NCBI GenBank assembly: GCA_963677765.1
Contig: OY782392.1
Span: 330,001 to 362,000, forward strand
Length of the DNA: 32,000 nt
Direction of reading: 5' to 3'
DNA from: Candidatus Saccharimonadota bacterium
GTDB taxonomy: Bacteria > Patescibacteriota > Gracilibacteria > BD1-5 > UBA6164
Under the pieces are notes generated by a model. That model saw only the letters and a program-made list of their open reading frames with translations. It was not told where the DNA came from and made no database searches. Below are positions 1 to 32,000 of this stretch, piece by piece. The position numbers were made by a program, and so were the translations under genes. Each line of letters opens with the position of its first letter. Position 1 is the stretch's first letter.

Positions 1-290
1 TTTAAAGAATTATAGTAATTTTTATTAATCAAATTATCAGGAAGATAATTAAGTCAATTTTTTGCTAACTCTAAAATCCTTGCTGAAACAACCGAGTCTA
101 TAACTCAGTTTACTTCAAATTTATTTTTTAAATCAATATATTGATCAGTTATTCTATATCTATATTCGTTAAACGTATTTAGATCAGAAGGAGTAATTGT
201 CGTATACTCAGTATCAGCAGCACTAACATAAGTTGGTGCTATAGCAGATATAATCAATATAAATAATGTAGTTAGTACTTTTTTAAACAT
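1..290 (-). CDS. Secreted hypothetical protein, partial (runs off left edge)
   Basis: ATG at 290. N-terminus MFKKVLTTLFILIISAIAPTYVSA|AD looks like a Sec signal peptide with an AxA-type site. The track ORF 105..290 ends at TGA (105-107); read as Gly, the frame stays open to position 1. Confidence 0.6.
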
Positions 291-447
291 ATTATTGTTC
301 TTAACAAATAGTTTTCTAACATAATATTAGCATAAATAAAAATTAAGAGCAAAAATATAACTAGCAAATAAAAGTATTTTAACTTGACTTTTAATCAATT
401 TATGACGACCAAATATATACTTTATATATACTTTTTTCTATTTTTTC

Positions 448-475
448 TTGACAAGTTATAAATTCAAAATATAAT
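448..475 (+). promoter_or_regulatory. Sigma70-like promoter upstream of ssb
   Basis: TTGACA (448-453), 16-nt spacer, TATAAT (470-475), about 60 nt upstream of the ssb ATG. AT-rich background raises the chance-match rate. Confidence 0.4.
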
Positions 476-534
476 TACATGGAATTTATTGTAATAATAA
501 GTTTAAAATTTTATATATCATAAATATTGCTATT

Positions 535-975
535 ATGGATTTAAACAAAGCGCAAATAATTGGTAGAATTACACAAGATTTAGAATTAAAACAAACACCA
601 AACGGGCAAAATGTTCTTAGTTTCTCTGTTGCAACTAATAGAAACTGGGTTGATTCTAGCTGAATGAAGCAAGAACAAGTTGAGTTTCATAATGTAGTAC
701 TATGGTGAAAATTATCAGAAATAGCATCTCAATATCTATGAAAATGAAGAAAAGTATTTATAGAATGAAGACTTCAAACTAGATCATGGGAAGCTCAAGA
801 CGGTACAAAAAGATACAAAACAGAAATAGTATGAGAAAATATGATTATGCTAGACTGAAAAAATGAAACTAATGAAAATTTTGATAATAATAGTTATACT
901 AATAACACAGCTGCTGTTAAAAAATCCTCTCCTAAACAAGAAGAAGAAATATCAATAGAAGATATTCCTTTTTAG
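535..975 (+). CDS. ssb: Single-stranded DNA-binding protein
   Basis: 146 aa. [38 protein letters not shown]...[50 protein letters not shown], with acidic tail ending EDIPF. OB-fold SSB signature is intact only if the 7 in-frame TGA are Gly. TAG stop. Confidence 0.93.
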
Positions 976-978
976 TCA

Positions 979-1005
979 AAAATCCAAGCCTTTAGCTTGG
1001 ATTTT
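979..1005 (+). terminator. Rho-independent terminator after ssb
   Basis: 11-bp perfect stem aaaatccaagc / gcttggatttt, loop cttta, ending in a T-run. Confidence 0.7.
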
Positions 1006-1086
1006 ATTAATCTTTACAAATTAAATATTTTTCATAAAATTATTTTACAAATAAAGTTATTATTTATATTTTTAATAATTAATTAA

Positions 1087-2181
1087 ATGGATTTATATAG
1101 TGTCTTATGAGTTGATAAAAATGCAAGTAAAGAAGAAATAAAAAAAGCTTACAGAAAAAAAGCTATGGAATACCATCCCGATAGAAATCCTGGTAATTCT
1201 GAAGCAGAAAAAAAATTCAAAGAAGTTGGTAGTGCTTATGAAGTATTATCAGATGACCAAAAAAGAAAACAATATGATATGTTTGGTTCTACATGATGAC
1301 AATCTTGATCTAATCCATTTGGATGAGCAGGAGTAGATGTAGATTTATGAGATATTTTTGAATCATTTTTTTGATGAGGTTTTTGATCTTGATCTAGAAA
1401 AAGAAGAACTGAATTCCCTTGAGAAGATTTAGAATACAATATAAATATAGACTTAAAAACTAGTATTTACTGATGAAAAGAAAAATTAAGTTTCAATAAA
1501 AAAGAAACATGTAATACATGTAATTGAGAATGATGATCAAATAAAAAAACATGTCCTAAATGTAATTGAAGATGACAAGTTACAAAAACTAGTCAAAGTA
1601 TGTTTTGAATGATACAACAAACTGTAACATGTGATGAATGTTCTTGAAGCGGAGAAATTTTTGAAAGCATATGTAATGATTGTAATTGAGAAAAAAGAAA
1701 ATTTATAAAAAAAGAAATAGATTTAGATATACCTGCATGAATTGATGATTCTATGGTTATAAAACTAACTTGAGAATGAAATCATTGAGTATGAACATCT
1801 GCAAAATGAGATTTATATGTTAGATTTAATGTAAATCTTGAAGAAAAATGATTAACAAGAGAATGAGTAGATTTATTTTATAGTATAGAAGTTGAAGTAG
1901 TTGAAGCTGTATTATGAACAAATAAAGAAATAAATATACCTATATTATGAAAAAGGAAAATAGAAATTAAATCATGAACAAATCATTGAAATATTATAAA
2001 AATACAATGAGATTGAGTAAAACATATAGATAGTGATAAAAAATGAGACCTTTATATAACTATCGAAATAAAGATACCTAAGAAACTTTCTAAATCTGAA
2101 AGAGATTTATATGAAAAAATAGCAAAAGAGAAAAAAATAAATGTAAATAAATGATGAGTATTTGAAAAAATATTTTGATAA
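1087..2181 (+). CDS. dnaJ: Molecular chaperone DnaJ
   Basis: 364 aa. J domain [36 protein letters not shown] with HPD. G/F-rich linker. Four CxxCxGxG zinc-finger repeats (first at 1510-1536: tgt aat aca tgt aat TGA gaa TGA TGA) whose glycines are TGA. TAA stop. Confidence 0.93.
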
Positions 2182-2190
2182 TTACAATCT

Positions 2191-29228: not shown

Positions 29229-29328
29229 ATAAAATTAAATAAGTTTTAAATTTTCTCTATTATAAAAAAAATTTTATTAAAATCAAAAAATAAATAAACT
29301 AAGAACACTTATTTTTAACAAAAAATTA

Positions 29329-30336
29329 ATGAATTATAAAAATATAATAACAATTATATTATTTTCCTTATTTGTATCTATAGCATATTATTTTAACTGA
29401 TTTATTTGAATACTAAGTTTTATAGTAAGTATATGATTTTACACAATTATATTTTATAGTTTTCATATAATATGGAAAAAATTAACAAAAAAAGAAATAA
29501 CTGATTTATATCAATATTGTAAATCATTTTTATTTAGATTATGATTATTTATATTTATTACTTCCTGAATAATTGGTTCATGGGCTTACTTATCAAATGA
29601 AGTATTCAAAGCTAAAATGCCTGAATACACAATAAGTAACTGAGAAAAAATTGTAAAGTTCCAAGCAATGGTTCACATATGAAGTGAAAGTTTTTATAAA
29701 GAAATTCAAAATAATTTAAAAGAATTTAAAGAAGAGTGATGAGTATATTTTTTTGAATGAGTAAGGCAGTGAACTCAAGAAAGTATGGATAAATTTAATC
29801 AAGCATTATGAATGAATTTTGATCAAGATCTATATAAAAATGTATCAAAACTTTATGGAGTACAATATCAAAATACTAACGATTTTTTGTGAATAGTTAA
29901 TGATTTAGATTTTAATATAGACTTAAATATAGATGAAATAATAAGTATATATGATGAGAAAGTTAGTAGTGAAAATAAATCAAATAATTCAAATGAAGTA
30001 ATAGATGCAAATAAACAAATAATTGATTTACTTAGCCAATTAAATGAGAAAGAATTAAAACTATTAGTATATATAAATCAAGCTATTTTAAATACAATAA
30101 TTTGAAATGAAGATATACAATCACAATTAAGTAAATCAATTTGAAAACAAGATATTTTTAGTGTTATAATTGATGATAGAGACTTGAATTTAGCAAAAGA
30201 AGTAAATAATTCAGAATATGAAAAAATATATATAACATACTGATTACTTCATTTTAAATGATTTTTCAACAAACTAAAAAGTATGGATGAAAATTGGGAA
30301 ATAGTAGAAGTAAAAAATCTATATCCTATAGACTAA
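29329..30336 (+). CDS. Membrane protein, possibly TraB/GumN family
   Basis: 335 aa. Three N-terminal TM segments, then KFQAMVHIGSESFYKEIQNNLKEFKEEGGVYFFEGV and a C-terminal YITYGLLHFKG. These resemble the two conserved His blocks of TraB/GumN proteins, but the match is weak. Confidence 0.35.
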
Positions 30337-30367
30337 AAAAAGAATTAGATAAACTAATTCTTTTTTT
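30335..30367. terminator. Bidirectional terminator shared by convergent genes
   Basis: 14-bp perfect stem aaaaaaagaattag / ctaattcttttttt, loop ataaa. The plus-gene stop (30334-30336) and the minus-gene stop (30367-30369) sit at the two feet. Confidence 0.75.
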
Positions 30368-31335
30368 TAATCGTTATAAAATATCGAACTAACATATAAA
30401 TACCCCCCTATAAAATATATAAATAAAACAAAACTAAATCATAAAGTTAAAAAAACATTAAAAATAGTATGAAGTAATATACTAACAACAAGTCAAAATA
30501 AAAATATTTTTAAATATGGAAAGCTTAATTCTTTTTCTCTATATAAAAGTAATGCTTTTGAAAAATAATAAGCTACAACACTACTAGCCAATATATGTAA
30601 AACAACTGAAAATGTAGAGCGAAAAAAGTATAGTTTTAATAATTCTCAATTTAATCAATATCATTGGTAATAATTGTATAAATATAATATATTTTCTACA
30701 AAACTAAATCATAAAGCTATAAATATAGAGTATAAAACTCAATCTTTTATAGATTTTATTTTAAAAACATCTGATTGTAAAAAATTGAAATGCTTAGCTG
30801 CCTCTTCTATAAATGCTACTATAAAATAATAAAAAATTATTAATTTAAATGTATCAAAAATTATAGATCAAAAGTTAATGGGGTTATTTATTTCAAAATC
30901 TATATATATTAATAAATAATTAAGAAAATATAAAAAAATACTTGATATAAATATAAAAAAAAGAAAAACTAATATATTTTTTATAAATATTTTTAATATA
31001 TTAAATTTATTCCTTAAAAAAGCTCATAAAATAAAAGAAAAAATAACTATCAATCACAAGAAAAAACTAAGAGACAATCAAAATTCAAAACTTGTTAATA
31101 TAGATTTTAACTCTGAAGCAAAATAAAAAACATTTAAATATTTAAAATCTAAAATATCCAATATTTTATCCATATTTAAAATTGGAAAAACAGCTAATGA
31201 TCAACCTAGAATTCATAAAATAAATCTTTTTTTATTTATAGGGTTATCATCTATATAAGTAAAAGAATAAGCCCAAATAACAATAGGAAAAAATGAAATA
31301 AGAGCTAAAAGTAAGTATAAAAAAATATCTTTCAT
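30367..31335 (-). CDS. PrsW family intramembrane metalloprotease
   Basis: 322 aa polytopic membrane protein with FIEEAAKHFNF (EExxK), ALGFSFVENILYLY (FxxxEN), FFRSTFSVVLHILAS and LLHTIFNVF, the conserved PrsW blocks. Confidence 0.65.
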
Positions 31336-31387
31336 AAGTTATTTTTATTTTGTTAATTAATTTAATTATAACATTTTTTATAACAAA

Positions 31388-31420
31388 ATAAAATAGAGTT
31401 TTTAAAAAACTCTATTTTAT
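31388..31420 (-). terminator. Terminator after the small membrane protein gene
   Basis: 13-bp perfect stem ataaaatagagtt / aactctattttat, loop tttaaaa, abutting the stop at 31420-31422. Confidence 0.65.
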
Positions 31421-31623
31421 TATTTTTTATTTCTATATATTTTATAATTTCAAAAACTTACATAATCTTCCCTATTTTCTTTATTTGATTTAAAAAATCA
31501 AAAAAAAGCTAACATATTAAGTCAAATAAATATGAAAAATCCTCAAATTAAAAAAACTAATATTGCAGGAAATGCTATTATAACTACTCAAAAGATAACT
31601 AATCAAATTGCTAAACCTTTCAT
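31420..31623 (-). CDS. Small membrane protein (67 aa, two TM segments; DUF3096-like)
   Basis: MKGLAIGLVIFGVVIIAFPAILVFLIGGFFIFIGLNMLAFFGFFKSNKENREDYVSFGNYKIYRNKK. Confidence 0.45.
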
Positions 31624-31641
31624 AAATTTTAATATTAATAA

Positions 31642-32000
31642 TTATTCTATTTCTTCTATATCAGCTCATAAAGATTTTAATTTATTTAAAAAATCTTCAT
31701 AACCTCTATATATATATTCAACATTTGTTATTTTTGTTTCTCATTCTGAAATTAATCAAGCTATAACCATAGCAGCTCAAGCTCTAAGATCCCAAGAAGT
31801 TACTGTAGCTCATCATTTTAAATGATTTGGTCAAAAAATTACTGCTTCATGAGGATTCATTATAGCTAAATTAGCAGCCATTTTTTCTAACTCAACTAAA
31901 AAGTTTAATCTTCATTCAAACAAAACTTCATGTATTTTACTTACTCAATTAGCTTGTGATAATAATATAGTAAATGGTGATTGCAAATCAGTTGGAAATC
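31642..32000 (-). CDS. murA: UDP-N-acetylglucosamine 1-carboxyvinyltransferase, C-terminal part (gene continues beyond right edge)
   Basis: FPTDLQSPFTILLSQANGVSKIHEVLFEGRLNFLVELEKMAANLAIMNPHEAVIFGPNHLKGGATVTSWDLRAGAAMVIAGLISEGETKITNVEYIYRGYEDFLNKLKSLGADIEEIE. TAA stop at 31642-31644. Confidence 0.9.

Follow-up and report, generated by a model that had tools for sequence, protein, structure and literature searches.

In-frame TGA probably encodes glycine in a 32-kb stretch of very AT-rich Gracilibacteria DNA

The window, which is the whole 32-kb stretch of DNA analysed here, is very probably a normal piece of chromosome from a Gracilibacteria bacterium (BD1-5, CPR) that is very AT-rich (21.5% GC) and uses NCBI translation table 25. 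In this code UGA specifies glycine, termination is confined to UAA and UAG, and UGG keeps its tryptophan meaning. A probability of about 0.97 is assigned to this reading of the sequence. Code 25 had been proposed in the original prediction; the observation is confirmed, and the interpretation is supported by ORF structure, glycine columns, Pfam scores and the codons of relatives. As code 25 is published, the recoding of TGA to glycine in the window is not novel. It is already established, and its importance here lies mainly in correct annotation.

Under code 11 the longest start-to-stop ORF in the window has 107 aa, as originally stated. The longest stop-to-stop frame has 117 codons; its counterpart in 100 Markov-1 simulations averages 92 and never exceeds 138. 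The observed frame lies within the simulated range, and the window thus resembles random sequence under this code. With TGA as sense, ORFs extend to 926 aa and 28,980 bp fall in frames of at least 150 codons, as against ~9 bp in the simulations, where the longest frame is 153 codons. Taking TAG as sense instead brings no gain (maximum 107 aa), and with TAA as sense the longest ORF reaches 240 aa. The 40 tightly packed CDS (37 long CDS and three small ORFs, 29.4 kb), all with TAA or TAG ends, were reproduced; the 36 long CDS that end within the window stop at TAA (32) or TAG (4). TGA is found in frame 466 times, in every one of the 37 long CDS except the HU gene, and the 29 kb of CDS contain neither TAA nor TAG in frame. 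The TGA codons are evenly distributed along genes with no 3′-end enrichment (they occur in the last five codons of 4 genes, with 8 expected), and conserved full-length Pfam domain matches run across them. The CDS are as follows; paired bit scores are with Gly and with Trp at TGA, and column counts refer to the PDB homologue named.

3-290, minus: hypothetical (g1), signal-peptide-like N-terminus, 3′ end beyond window; 2 TGA; no Pfam match
535-975, plus: SSB; 7 TGA; PF00436, 126.7 bits (Gly), 104.7 (Trp)
1087-2181, plus: DnaJ; 39 TGA, 7 GGN; last sense codon TGA, then TAA; DnaJ_C, 117.6 bits (Gly), 43.9 (Trp); 28/38 TGA columns Gly in 6jzb_A
2240-3286, plus: PLD-like protein, two HKD motifs; 8 TGA; PLDc_2, 151.7 bits
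3348-6128, plus: 926-aa hypothetical, N-terminal TM segment; 42 TGA; no Pfam match
6132-6380, plus: 82-aa hypothetical membrane protein; 5 TGA
6387-8051, plus: 2-oxoacid:ferredoxin oxidoreductase (OFOR) alpha subunit; 29 TGA; POR and POR_N domains; 16/27 TGA columns Gly in 5b48_A
8055-8657, plus: OFOR beta subunit (TPP-binding); 14 TGA; 12/13 TGA columns Gly in 5b46_B
8733-8966, plus: 77-aa hypothetical; 6 TGA
9015-9314, minus: 99-aa hypothetical; 1 TGA
9298-9975, minus: RsmI 16S rRNA methyltransferase; 16 TGA; PF00590, 116.3 bits (Gly), 78.6 (Trp); 9/16 TGA columns Gly in 3kwp_A
10218-10994, minus: 258-aa hypothetical; 13 TGA, 0 GGN
11196-12176, plus: PriA, C-terminal half only (model positions 447-768 of 788 matched); 11 TGA
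12268-13392, plus: DnaN sliding clamp; 16 TGA
13402-13920, plus: TPR-repeat protein; 11 TGA
13934-15139, plus: FtsA-like actin-fold ATPase (TIGR01174 and fold similarity); 16 TGA
15152-15874, minus: ABC transporter ATPase; 15 TGA, 7 GGN
16022-16570, plus: ribosome recycling factor (RRF); 3 TGA, 4 GGN; PF01765, 178 bits
16658-16840, plus: small ORF, 60 aa; 4 TGA
16905-17675, minus: YebC/TACO1 family protein; 14 TGA; 10/13 TGA columns Gly in 1lfp_A
17764-18042, minus: 92-aa hypothetical; 4 TGA
18124-19689, minus: 521-aa protein, C-terminal MUG113/T5orf172 domain; 23 TGA
19715-21058, minus: peptidase U32 family protein; 24 TGA; W91 is TGG (CGG in two relatives)
21149-21349, minus: small ORF, 66 aa; 4 TGA; gene call also on ENA contig L053
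21495-21833, plus: RbfA; 4 TGA
21842-22810, plus: 322-aa hypothetical membrane protein; 6 TGA
22818-23342, minus: HATPase_c_2 (anti-sigma-type kinase-like) protein; 11 TGA
23451-23723, minus: HU DNA-binding protein; no TGA, unlike every other gene; 6 Gly codons, each GGT or GGA
23870-24679, minus: 269-aa hypothetical, possibly minor pilin; 19 TGA
24683-25258, minus: prepilin-type protein (PF07963); G(-1) is TGA
25260-25874, minus: prepilin-type protein; G(-1) is TGA
25879-26448, minus: prepilin-type protein; G(-1) is GGN
26522-27613, minus: PilC/GspF platform protein (T2SSF); 18 TGA; TGA-TAA end
27618-28169, minus: 183-aa hypothetical membrane protein; 3 TGA
28192-28716, minus: 174-aa hypothetical membrane protein; 10 TGA
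28812-29228, minus: T4SS_pilin-like small membrane protein; 11 TGA
29329-30336, plus: 335-aa hypothetical membrane protein; 17 TGA
30367-31335, minus: PrsW-family intramembrane protease; 13 TGA
31420-31623, minus: small ORF, 67 aa; 7 TGA
31642-31998, minus: EPSP-synthase-fold enzyme (MurA-like), C-terminal part, 5′ end beyond window; 9 TGA

The OFOR beta subunit, at 200 aa, is shorter than its solved homologues (~300 aa). The protein at 13934-15139 had been called FtsA. Three consecutive TGA codons are indeed present at 14873-14881, at the GGG of the G-G-G-A-N adenosine motif, but the protein has no Pfam match and no PDB sequence match. Its identity comes from fold similarity and a TIGR01174 match of E 6e-9 that falls below the model's cut-off; the model of a homologue sharing 70% identity has matches to FtsA (E 1e-21) and PilM (E 5e-19).

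The residue encoded by TGA was assessed by masking TGA as X and aligning six proteins to their best PDB homologues, all from standard-code organisms. Glycine occupies 77 of the 114 TGA columns and tryptophan none (binomial p = 1.6e-50 against a 9.6% glycine background). About one-third of TGA columns are thus off glycine, and the same holds for GGN control columns, where glycine is found at the same rate (22/34). TGG columns are few (n = 6); three are Trp and two of the remaining three are aromatic (Tyr, Phe), in keeping with the prediction that TGG still encodes Trp. Ten candidate residues were also substituted at the 69 TGA codons of a concatenate, and the summed Pfam scores are highest for glycine (494.7 bits), followed by Ala (400), Ser (395) and Asn (394), with Trp (330) among the worst. 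Glycine scores above Trp in 16 of 17 Pfam domains from ten proteins; the sole exception is a short PLDc motif (Trp 35.1, Gly 33.7 bits). Both tests bear out the claim that TGA sits on glycines, not tryptophans.

Most of the individual motifs cited for that claim read as described. The SSB W-G-K at 703-711 is TGG TGA AAA, with TGA at 706-708. In the DnaJ CxxCxGxG motif, 1525-1536 is TGA GAA TGA TGA, following TGT..TGT, and the OFOR-beta W-C-A-G-C-G-D at 8082-8102 is TGG TGT GCT TGA TGT TGA GAC. RsmI has TGA at all three x positions of SDAxTPxISDPx. Others stand in part. Of the three prepilins, two have TGA for the glycine preceding FTLIE and one has GGN, the ABC Walker A motif has TGA at its first glycine but not at the remaining ones, and of the HKD-associated glycines of the PLD-like protein the first alone is TGA.

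Open reading frames are restored equally well by code 4, the TGA-to-Trp code of Mollicutes (Mycoplasma/Spiroplasma) and of certain insect endosymbionts. These are similarly AT-rich, so that 21.5% GC fits them also, and the gene caller of the public protein collection translated the source genome in this way. RF2 is presumably lost in table 4 lineages. The amino acid differs, however: the absence of Trp from all 114 TGA columns refutes code 4, and the Pfam total is 330 bits with Trp as against 495 with Gly. Codon usage points the same way. TGA (4.87% of codons) and GGN (1.13%) together give 6.0%, a normal glycine content, with TGG at 0.32%; read by code 4, the same codons would amount to 5.2% Trp against 1.1% Gly. 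When the window was aligned to 28 related loci and contig L053, its TGA sites paired with TGA 1829, GGA 285, GGT 217 and GGG 72 times, while TGG is absent from the top 15 paired codons. TGA is interchangeable with GGN, and never TGG, between the window and relatives, which themselves belong to the CPR Gracilibacteria. A Trp reading is very unlikely on these grounds. The warning that pipelines would misannotate the locus proved justified, as the source genome's YebC and RRF occur in the public collection only as TGA-to-Trp translations, and 105 of 120 homologues of one gene are translated with Trp.

It is exceedingly improbable that TGA is still a stop, with the locus full of pseudogenes or with TGA passed over through selenocysteine insertion or programmed readthrough. 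No gene survives under code 11, and ARAGORN labels a tRNA(UCA) of one relative 'tRNA-SeC', as this reading would have it. Yet 29 kb of sequence contain 466 TGA codons in frame and neither of the other two stops, a result that together with the glycine columns refutes the stop reading; full-length domain matches extend over the TGAs, and TGA positions stay TGA or GGN across relatives. The labelled tRNA is canonical (RF00005, 45.9 bits) and of standard type I, not tRNA-Sec, with anticodon UCA and the Gly identity elements G1:C72, C2:G71, G3:C70 and U73.

Glycine decoding of UGA would be carried out by a dedicated tRNA-Gly(UCA) bearing this GlyRS identity set, and release factor 2 would have been lost, so that RF1 alone would terminate at UAA and UAG. 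The window contains no tRNA or release-factor genes, and for the source genome both components are therefore inferred, from relatives and literature, and not seen. UGA as glycine has been proven by proteomics in BD1-5 (PMC4032931), prfA is present and prfB absent in all available BD1-5 genomes (PMC6851277) and of 15 Gracilibacteria species analysed with Codetta, 13 were inferred to use UGA for Gly (PMC8629427).

The Gracilibacteria-type CPR lineage that had been proposed is supported by RRF, HU and FtsA-like homologues, all from Candidatus Gracilibacteria MAGs. With RRF as the query for finding relatives, identities are 65-87%, and these MAGs likewise lack code-11 ORFs. Two Gracilibacteria-labelled species keep UGA as a stop (PMC8629427) and lineage alone is therefore no proof of code 25, but the density of in-frame TGA in the window settles the question despite such exceptions. 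Table 25, the Candidate Division SR1 and Gracilibacteria code (Campbell 2013; Rinke 2013; both as cited in PMC8629427), has been validated by proteomics (Hanke 2014, PMC4032931). The window agrees with it in UGA glycine, the two stops UAA and UAG, UGG tryptophan and low GC in a CPR genome; tRNA(UCA) with the elements of Gly identity is present in a relative, and the closest homologues are Gracilibacteria MAGs. There is no difference in kind; the source genome sits near the bottom of the GC range in the literature (0.21-0.53, PMC8629427), and TGA makes up 81% of glycine codons in the window. The closed Gracilibacteria genome 28_42_T64 (CP042461; Sieber 2019, PMC6851277), reported to have prfA but not prfB, shares the code. 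The RRFs of that genome and the window are 69% identical, and the FtsA-like hypothetical protein family is present in both; 28_42_T64 has 28.9% GC and a TGA share of glycine codons of 0.57 at the sampled locus, compared with 21.5% and 0.81 in the window.

A further drift of code 25, in which CGA and CGG are no longer Arg (unassigned, or CGG as Trp) and the true code is a table 25 derivative, is possible but rather doubtful. Neither codon is found among 9,570 in-frame codons, although out of frame on coding strands CGA is present 39 times and CGG 11 times. With in-frame CGT (3) and CGC (1) also rare, little of the CGN box is left in use and AGA and AGG serve as the Arg codons, a pattern that resembles the codes predicted by Codetta, with CGA and CGG as Trp in Absconditabacteria and CGG as Trp in some Gracilibacteria (PMC8629427). 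In two relatives the sole aligned CGG falls at codon 91 of the U32 peptidase, a conserved Trp position (W91) that is TGG in the window and other relatives. But this is one orthologous site and could represent a single TGG-to-CGG (Trp-to-Arg) substitution, relatives' CGA codons align with Arg and Lys, and AT pressure alone would explain the absence of both codons. Being unused, they have no readable meaning in the window.

Composition suggests how TGA might have become the majority glycine codon under code 25. Strong mutational pressure towards AT may have led to the replacement of most GGN codons, with at least two G/C, by TGA, with one. Across relatives, the TGA share of glycine codons climbs with falling GC.

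In the standard bacterial code (code 11), the longest open reading frame of the window comprises 107 amino acids, the same value as in the original prediction. The window has a GC content of 21.5%, and its longest stop-to-stop frame under code 11 is 117 codons, compared with a mean of 92 and a maximum of 138 codons in sequences simulated by a first-order Markov model of the same composition. When TGA is read as sense, open reading frames of up to 926 amino acids are found, and 28,980 bp lie in frames of at least 150 codons; simulated sequence treated in this way has about 9 bp in such frames, with a longest frame of 153 codons. 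Genes in the window are not rescued when TAG or TAA is made sense instead. The predicted total of 40 coding sequences covering 29.4 kb is exactly reproduced and consists of 37 long coding sequences and three small open reading frames in gaps. The loci discussed individually below are as follows.

8055-8657, + strand, OFOR beta
11196-12176, + strand, PriA, C-terminal half
13934-15139, + strand, FtsA-like actin-fold protein
19715-21058, - strand, U32 peptidase
23451-23723, - strand, HU
23870-29228, - strand, gene cluster resembling a type IV pilus cluster

It had been predicted that every gene ends in TAA or TAG, and this holds for the 36 long coding sequences that end within the window (32 with TAA, four with TAG). 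Neither codon is present in frame in the window's coding sequences; TAA and TAG remain stops, as in code 25, and are enough to end every gene. In-frame TGA codons number 466 and are spread over 36 of the 37 long coding sequences, with Pfam domains running across the TGA sites. The idea that TGA might serve some genes as a stop while being sense in others was considered and rejected; there is no sign of it because TGA is evenly distributed along genes and is not enriched at 3′ ends. As a separate observation, TGA directly precedes TAA at the ends of DnaJ (2179-2184) and PilC (27611-27616 region). In both genes the TGA may be left over from an ancestral stop that was backed up by TAA, although the evidence is anecdotal.

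Four independent tests are concordant on glycine as the residue encoded by TGA. Among 9,570 in-frame codons there are 466 TGA, 108 GGN and 31 TGG. TGA and GGN together give a glycine content of 6.0% of codons, a normal level, whereas reading TGA as tryptophan would give a composition of 5.2% tryptophan and 1.1% glycine. Pfam scores in ten proteins are higher with glycine than with tryptophan for 16 of 17 domains, for example 117.6 versus 43.9 bits for DnaJ_C and 160.4 versus 120.2 bits for POR_N; the sole exception is the short PLDc motif, with 33.7 bits for glycine and 35.1 for tryptophan. Ten candidate residues were also substituted at the 69 TGA codons of a DnaJ, OFOR-beta and RsmI concatenate. 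Glycine has the best summed score, at 494.7 bits, followed by A (400), S (395), N (394), D (373), K (368), R (367), L (335), W (330) and C (about 330).

For the third test, TGA residues were masked as X against alignment bias, and six proteins were aligned with their best solved-structure homologues, which are from standard-code organisms. The TGA columns carry glycine in 77 of 114 cases (p = 1.6e-50 against a background of 9.6% glycine) and tryptophan in none. In the same alignments the GGN control columns have glycine in 22 of 34, an equal rate, and TGA therefore behaves exactly as a glycine codon. The fourth test, of synonymous exchange, used BLASTP alignments to the open reading frames of 28 related loci, found with the ribosome recycling factor (RRF) of the window, and of an ENA contig (L053). 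In this set the TGA sites of the window pair with TGA (1,829), GGA (285), GGT (217) and GGG (72), and no pairing with TGG was found. A rival reading, code 4 with UGA as tryptophan, is rejected by the empty tryptophan count in the TGA columns and by a cost of 165 Pfam bits over the 69 codons. Tryptophan itself is still written TGG, as predicted: three of six TGG columns hold tryptophan and the other three include two aromatic residues (Tyr and Phe), a small sample, and 197 of 214 TGG codons of the window that were paired with relatives pair with TGG.

The individual sites offered as examples of TGA at glycine are largely as described, and all of their quoted coordinates are correct. In SSB (706-708) the TGA is flanked by TGG and AAA, in DnaJ the stretch at 1525-1536 is TGA GAA TGA TGA and follows the two Cys codons of the zinc finger, and in OFOR beta the sequence at 8082-8102 is TGG TGT GCT TGA TGT TGA GAC. 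Three consecutive TGA codons are present at 14873-14881, and the RsmI and prepilin examples are real. Two further examples are real in part: TGA encodes only the first glycine of the ABC Walker A motif, and of the two glycines associated with the HKD motifs of the PLD protein it encodes the first alone.

Taken as a whole, the window is almost certainly written in code 25, with UGA as glycine (probability about 0.97). The code is NCBI table 25, found here in a lineage already known to use it, as the original prediction acknowledged; UGA as glycine is thus already known biology here and not a novel feature. For Gracilibacteria, code 25 dates from a prediction of 2013, and proteomic confirmation followed in 2014 (PMC4032931). 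The source genome lies at the bottom of the published GC range of 0.21-0.53 (PMC8629427). The RRF search of GTDB species genomes gave 28 loci at 58-87% identity, with 65-87% identity to Gracilibacteria MAGs; the majority bear the name Candidatus Gracilibacteria, a few are labelled Peribacteria or Patescibacteria, and the closed genome CP042461 is among the 28. The HU cluster likewise consists of Gracilibacteria proteins, as do the 120 homologues found for the FtsA-like protein. The predicted placement in Gracilibacteria or Absconditabacteria is thereby supported, as a probable affiliation by protein similarity only. Because the gene content includes dnaN, ssb, dnaJ, frr, rbfA, rsmI, a type IV pilus cluster and 2-oxoacid:ferredoxin oxidoreductase, and the source contig is 1.05 Mb long, the sequence is shown to be cellular chromosome.

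No tRNA, Rfam match or release-factor gene was found in the window (tRNA and Rfam scans), and the decoding machinery of the source genome is therefore inferred and not observed. A tRNA with a UCA anticodon is present in one of the 28 related loci (L024), which has a GC content of 21.7% and a TGA share of 0.82. This tRNA is located directly upstream of frr, fits the general tRNA model RF00005 at 45.9 bits and not tRNA-Sec, and carries G1:C72, C2:G71, G3:C70 and U73, the criteria used for calling tRNA-Gly(UCA) (PMC8629427). All BD1-5 genomes are reported to have prfA and lack prfB (PMC6851277), and UGA as glycine is backed by published peptide evidence (PMC4032931). Judged from the L024 tRNA and this literature, the decoding mechanism is most likely the published one, whereby GlyRS would charge tRNA-Gly(UCA), RF2 would have been lost and RF1 would terminate at UAA and UAG.

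TGA makes up 81% of the glycine codons of the window. When the 28 Gracilibacteria loci are compared together with the window, the TGA share decreases from about 0.85 at 21% GC to 0.16 at 39% GC (Spearman -0.80, p = 2e-7, 29 loci including the window), a trend that fits AT pressure turning GGN into TGA after reassignment. Among the genes of the window, higher GC is likewise accompanied by less TGA (Spearman -0.46, p = 0.007). Only the HU gene departs significantly from the rest, as the sole long coding sequence without TGA: none of its six glycine codons is TGA, all being GGT or GGA (P = 4.4e-5, about 1.6e-3 when corrected for 37 genes). In its 90%-identity cluster, the 15 members listed have about 100 glycines and a single tryptophan between them, which means that those translated with code 4 contain just one TGA. 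A foreign origin of HU was rejected; its GC3 is 4.4% and its AT bias equals that of the rest of the window. The HU gene and the GC trend within the window are suggestive of selection against UGA in genes with high expression, but fall short of proof. If UGA is selected against, decoding by tRNA-Gly(UCA) would be slower or less accurate than decoding of GGU.

CGA and CGG are absent from the 9,570 in-frame codons of the window, and occur 39 and 11 times, respectively, out of frame on the coding strands. CGT is found three times and CGC once in frame, and arginine is specified nearly always by AGA (209) and AGG (27). Two related loci, L010 and L011, which include GN02-872, have the only aligned CGG, at Trp91 of the U32 peptidase (NLNAWYYTDE), where the window and other relatives have TGG. 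Codetta predicts a CGG to tryptophan reassignment in some Gracilibacteria (PMC8629427), and the Trp91 codon is consistent with this prediction. It represents one orthologous site, however, and could instead be a plain single Trp-to-Arg substitution. A broader proposal is that this very low-GC lineage has moved past table 25, with UGA the default glycine codon yet disfavoured in the most highly expressed genes, and with CGA and CGG dropped, either unassigned or with CGG as tryptophan. It is considered rather unlikely.

The value of the assignment is practical and lies in annotation, with HU and selection against UGA, and CGA/CGG, as modest leads. Any downstream reading of the window hinges on translating TGA as glycine. 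The warning that pipelines would misannotate the locus proved to be observed fact. The YebC and RRF proteins of the source genome (P0016 and P0017) are present in the public collection only as TGA-to-Trp versions, and 105 of the 120 FtsA-like homologues (P0033-P0152) are Trp-translated, with 3-6% tryptophan and less than 2% glycine, a code-4 mistranslation. Only 15 of the 120 have a glycine-type composition (Trp below 1%, Gly about 4%), those named in NCBI nr included. A wrong residue at about 5% of positions degrades homology detection, as with the fall of DnaJ_C from 118 to 44 bits, and structure prediction would suffer from the same error.

The FtsA label given in the original prediction stands in part. 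The coding sequence has no match to Pfam FtsA/SHS2_FTSA, and its TIGR01174 score of 35 bits is below the cut-off of 176, which places it outside FtsA by sequence. It has no PDB match in a single-sequence search; a profile search detected ParM alone, weakly. A fold search was made with the AlphaFold model of P0036, an NCBI code-25 homologue with 70% identity (pLDDT 85.9). In the PDB the model is closest to FtsA structures (S. aureus, V. maritimus and T. maritima; E 1e-21, TM 0.6-0.7), with PilM ranking next, and the protein is thus predicted to have an FtsA-type actin fold. Because there is no Pfam match but the model is closest to FtsA, the label is reasonable at the fold level only. The family is found throughout Gracilibacteria at 50-95% identity, annotated as hypothetical and without a Pfam match.

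PriA is represented by its C-terminal half only (model positions 447-768 of 788), which comprises the zinc ribbon, the helicase C domain and the C-terminal domain; the N-terminal half, with the Walker A helicase, has no open reading frame upstream, where the adjoining gene is on the opposite strand. OFOR beta, of 200 amino acids, stops directly after the TPP-binding domain and appears to be without the usual C-terminal domain, the solved homologues having 273-305 amino acids. The pilus-like cluster is compact and confined to a single strand, with three prepilin-type genes, a PilC/GspF platform gene, several small membrane proteins and a T4SS_pilin-like gene; a pilus ATPase and a prepilin peptidase are not found in the window. 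Gene orientation and GC/AT skew flip around 9-16 kb, from the + strand at 1-15 kb to the - strand at 17-29 kb, and the genes therefore converge. This could represent a terminus-like region or merely reflect purine-rich coding strands.
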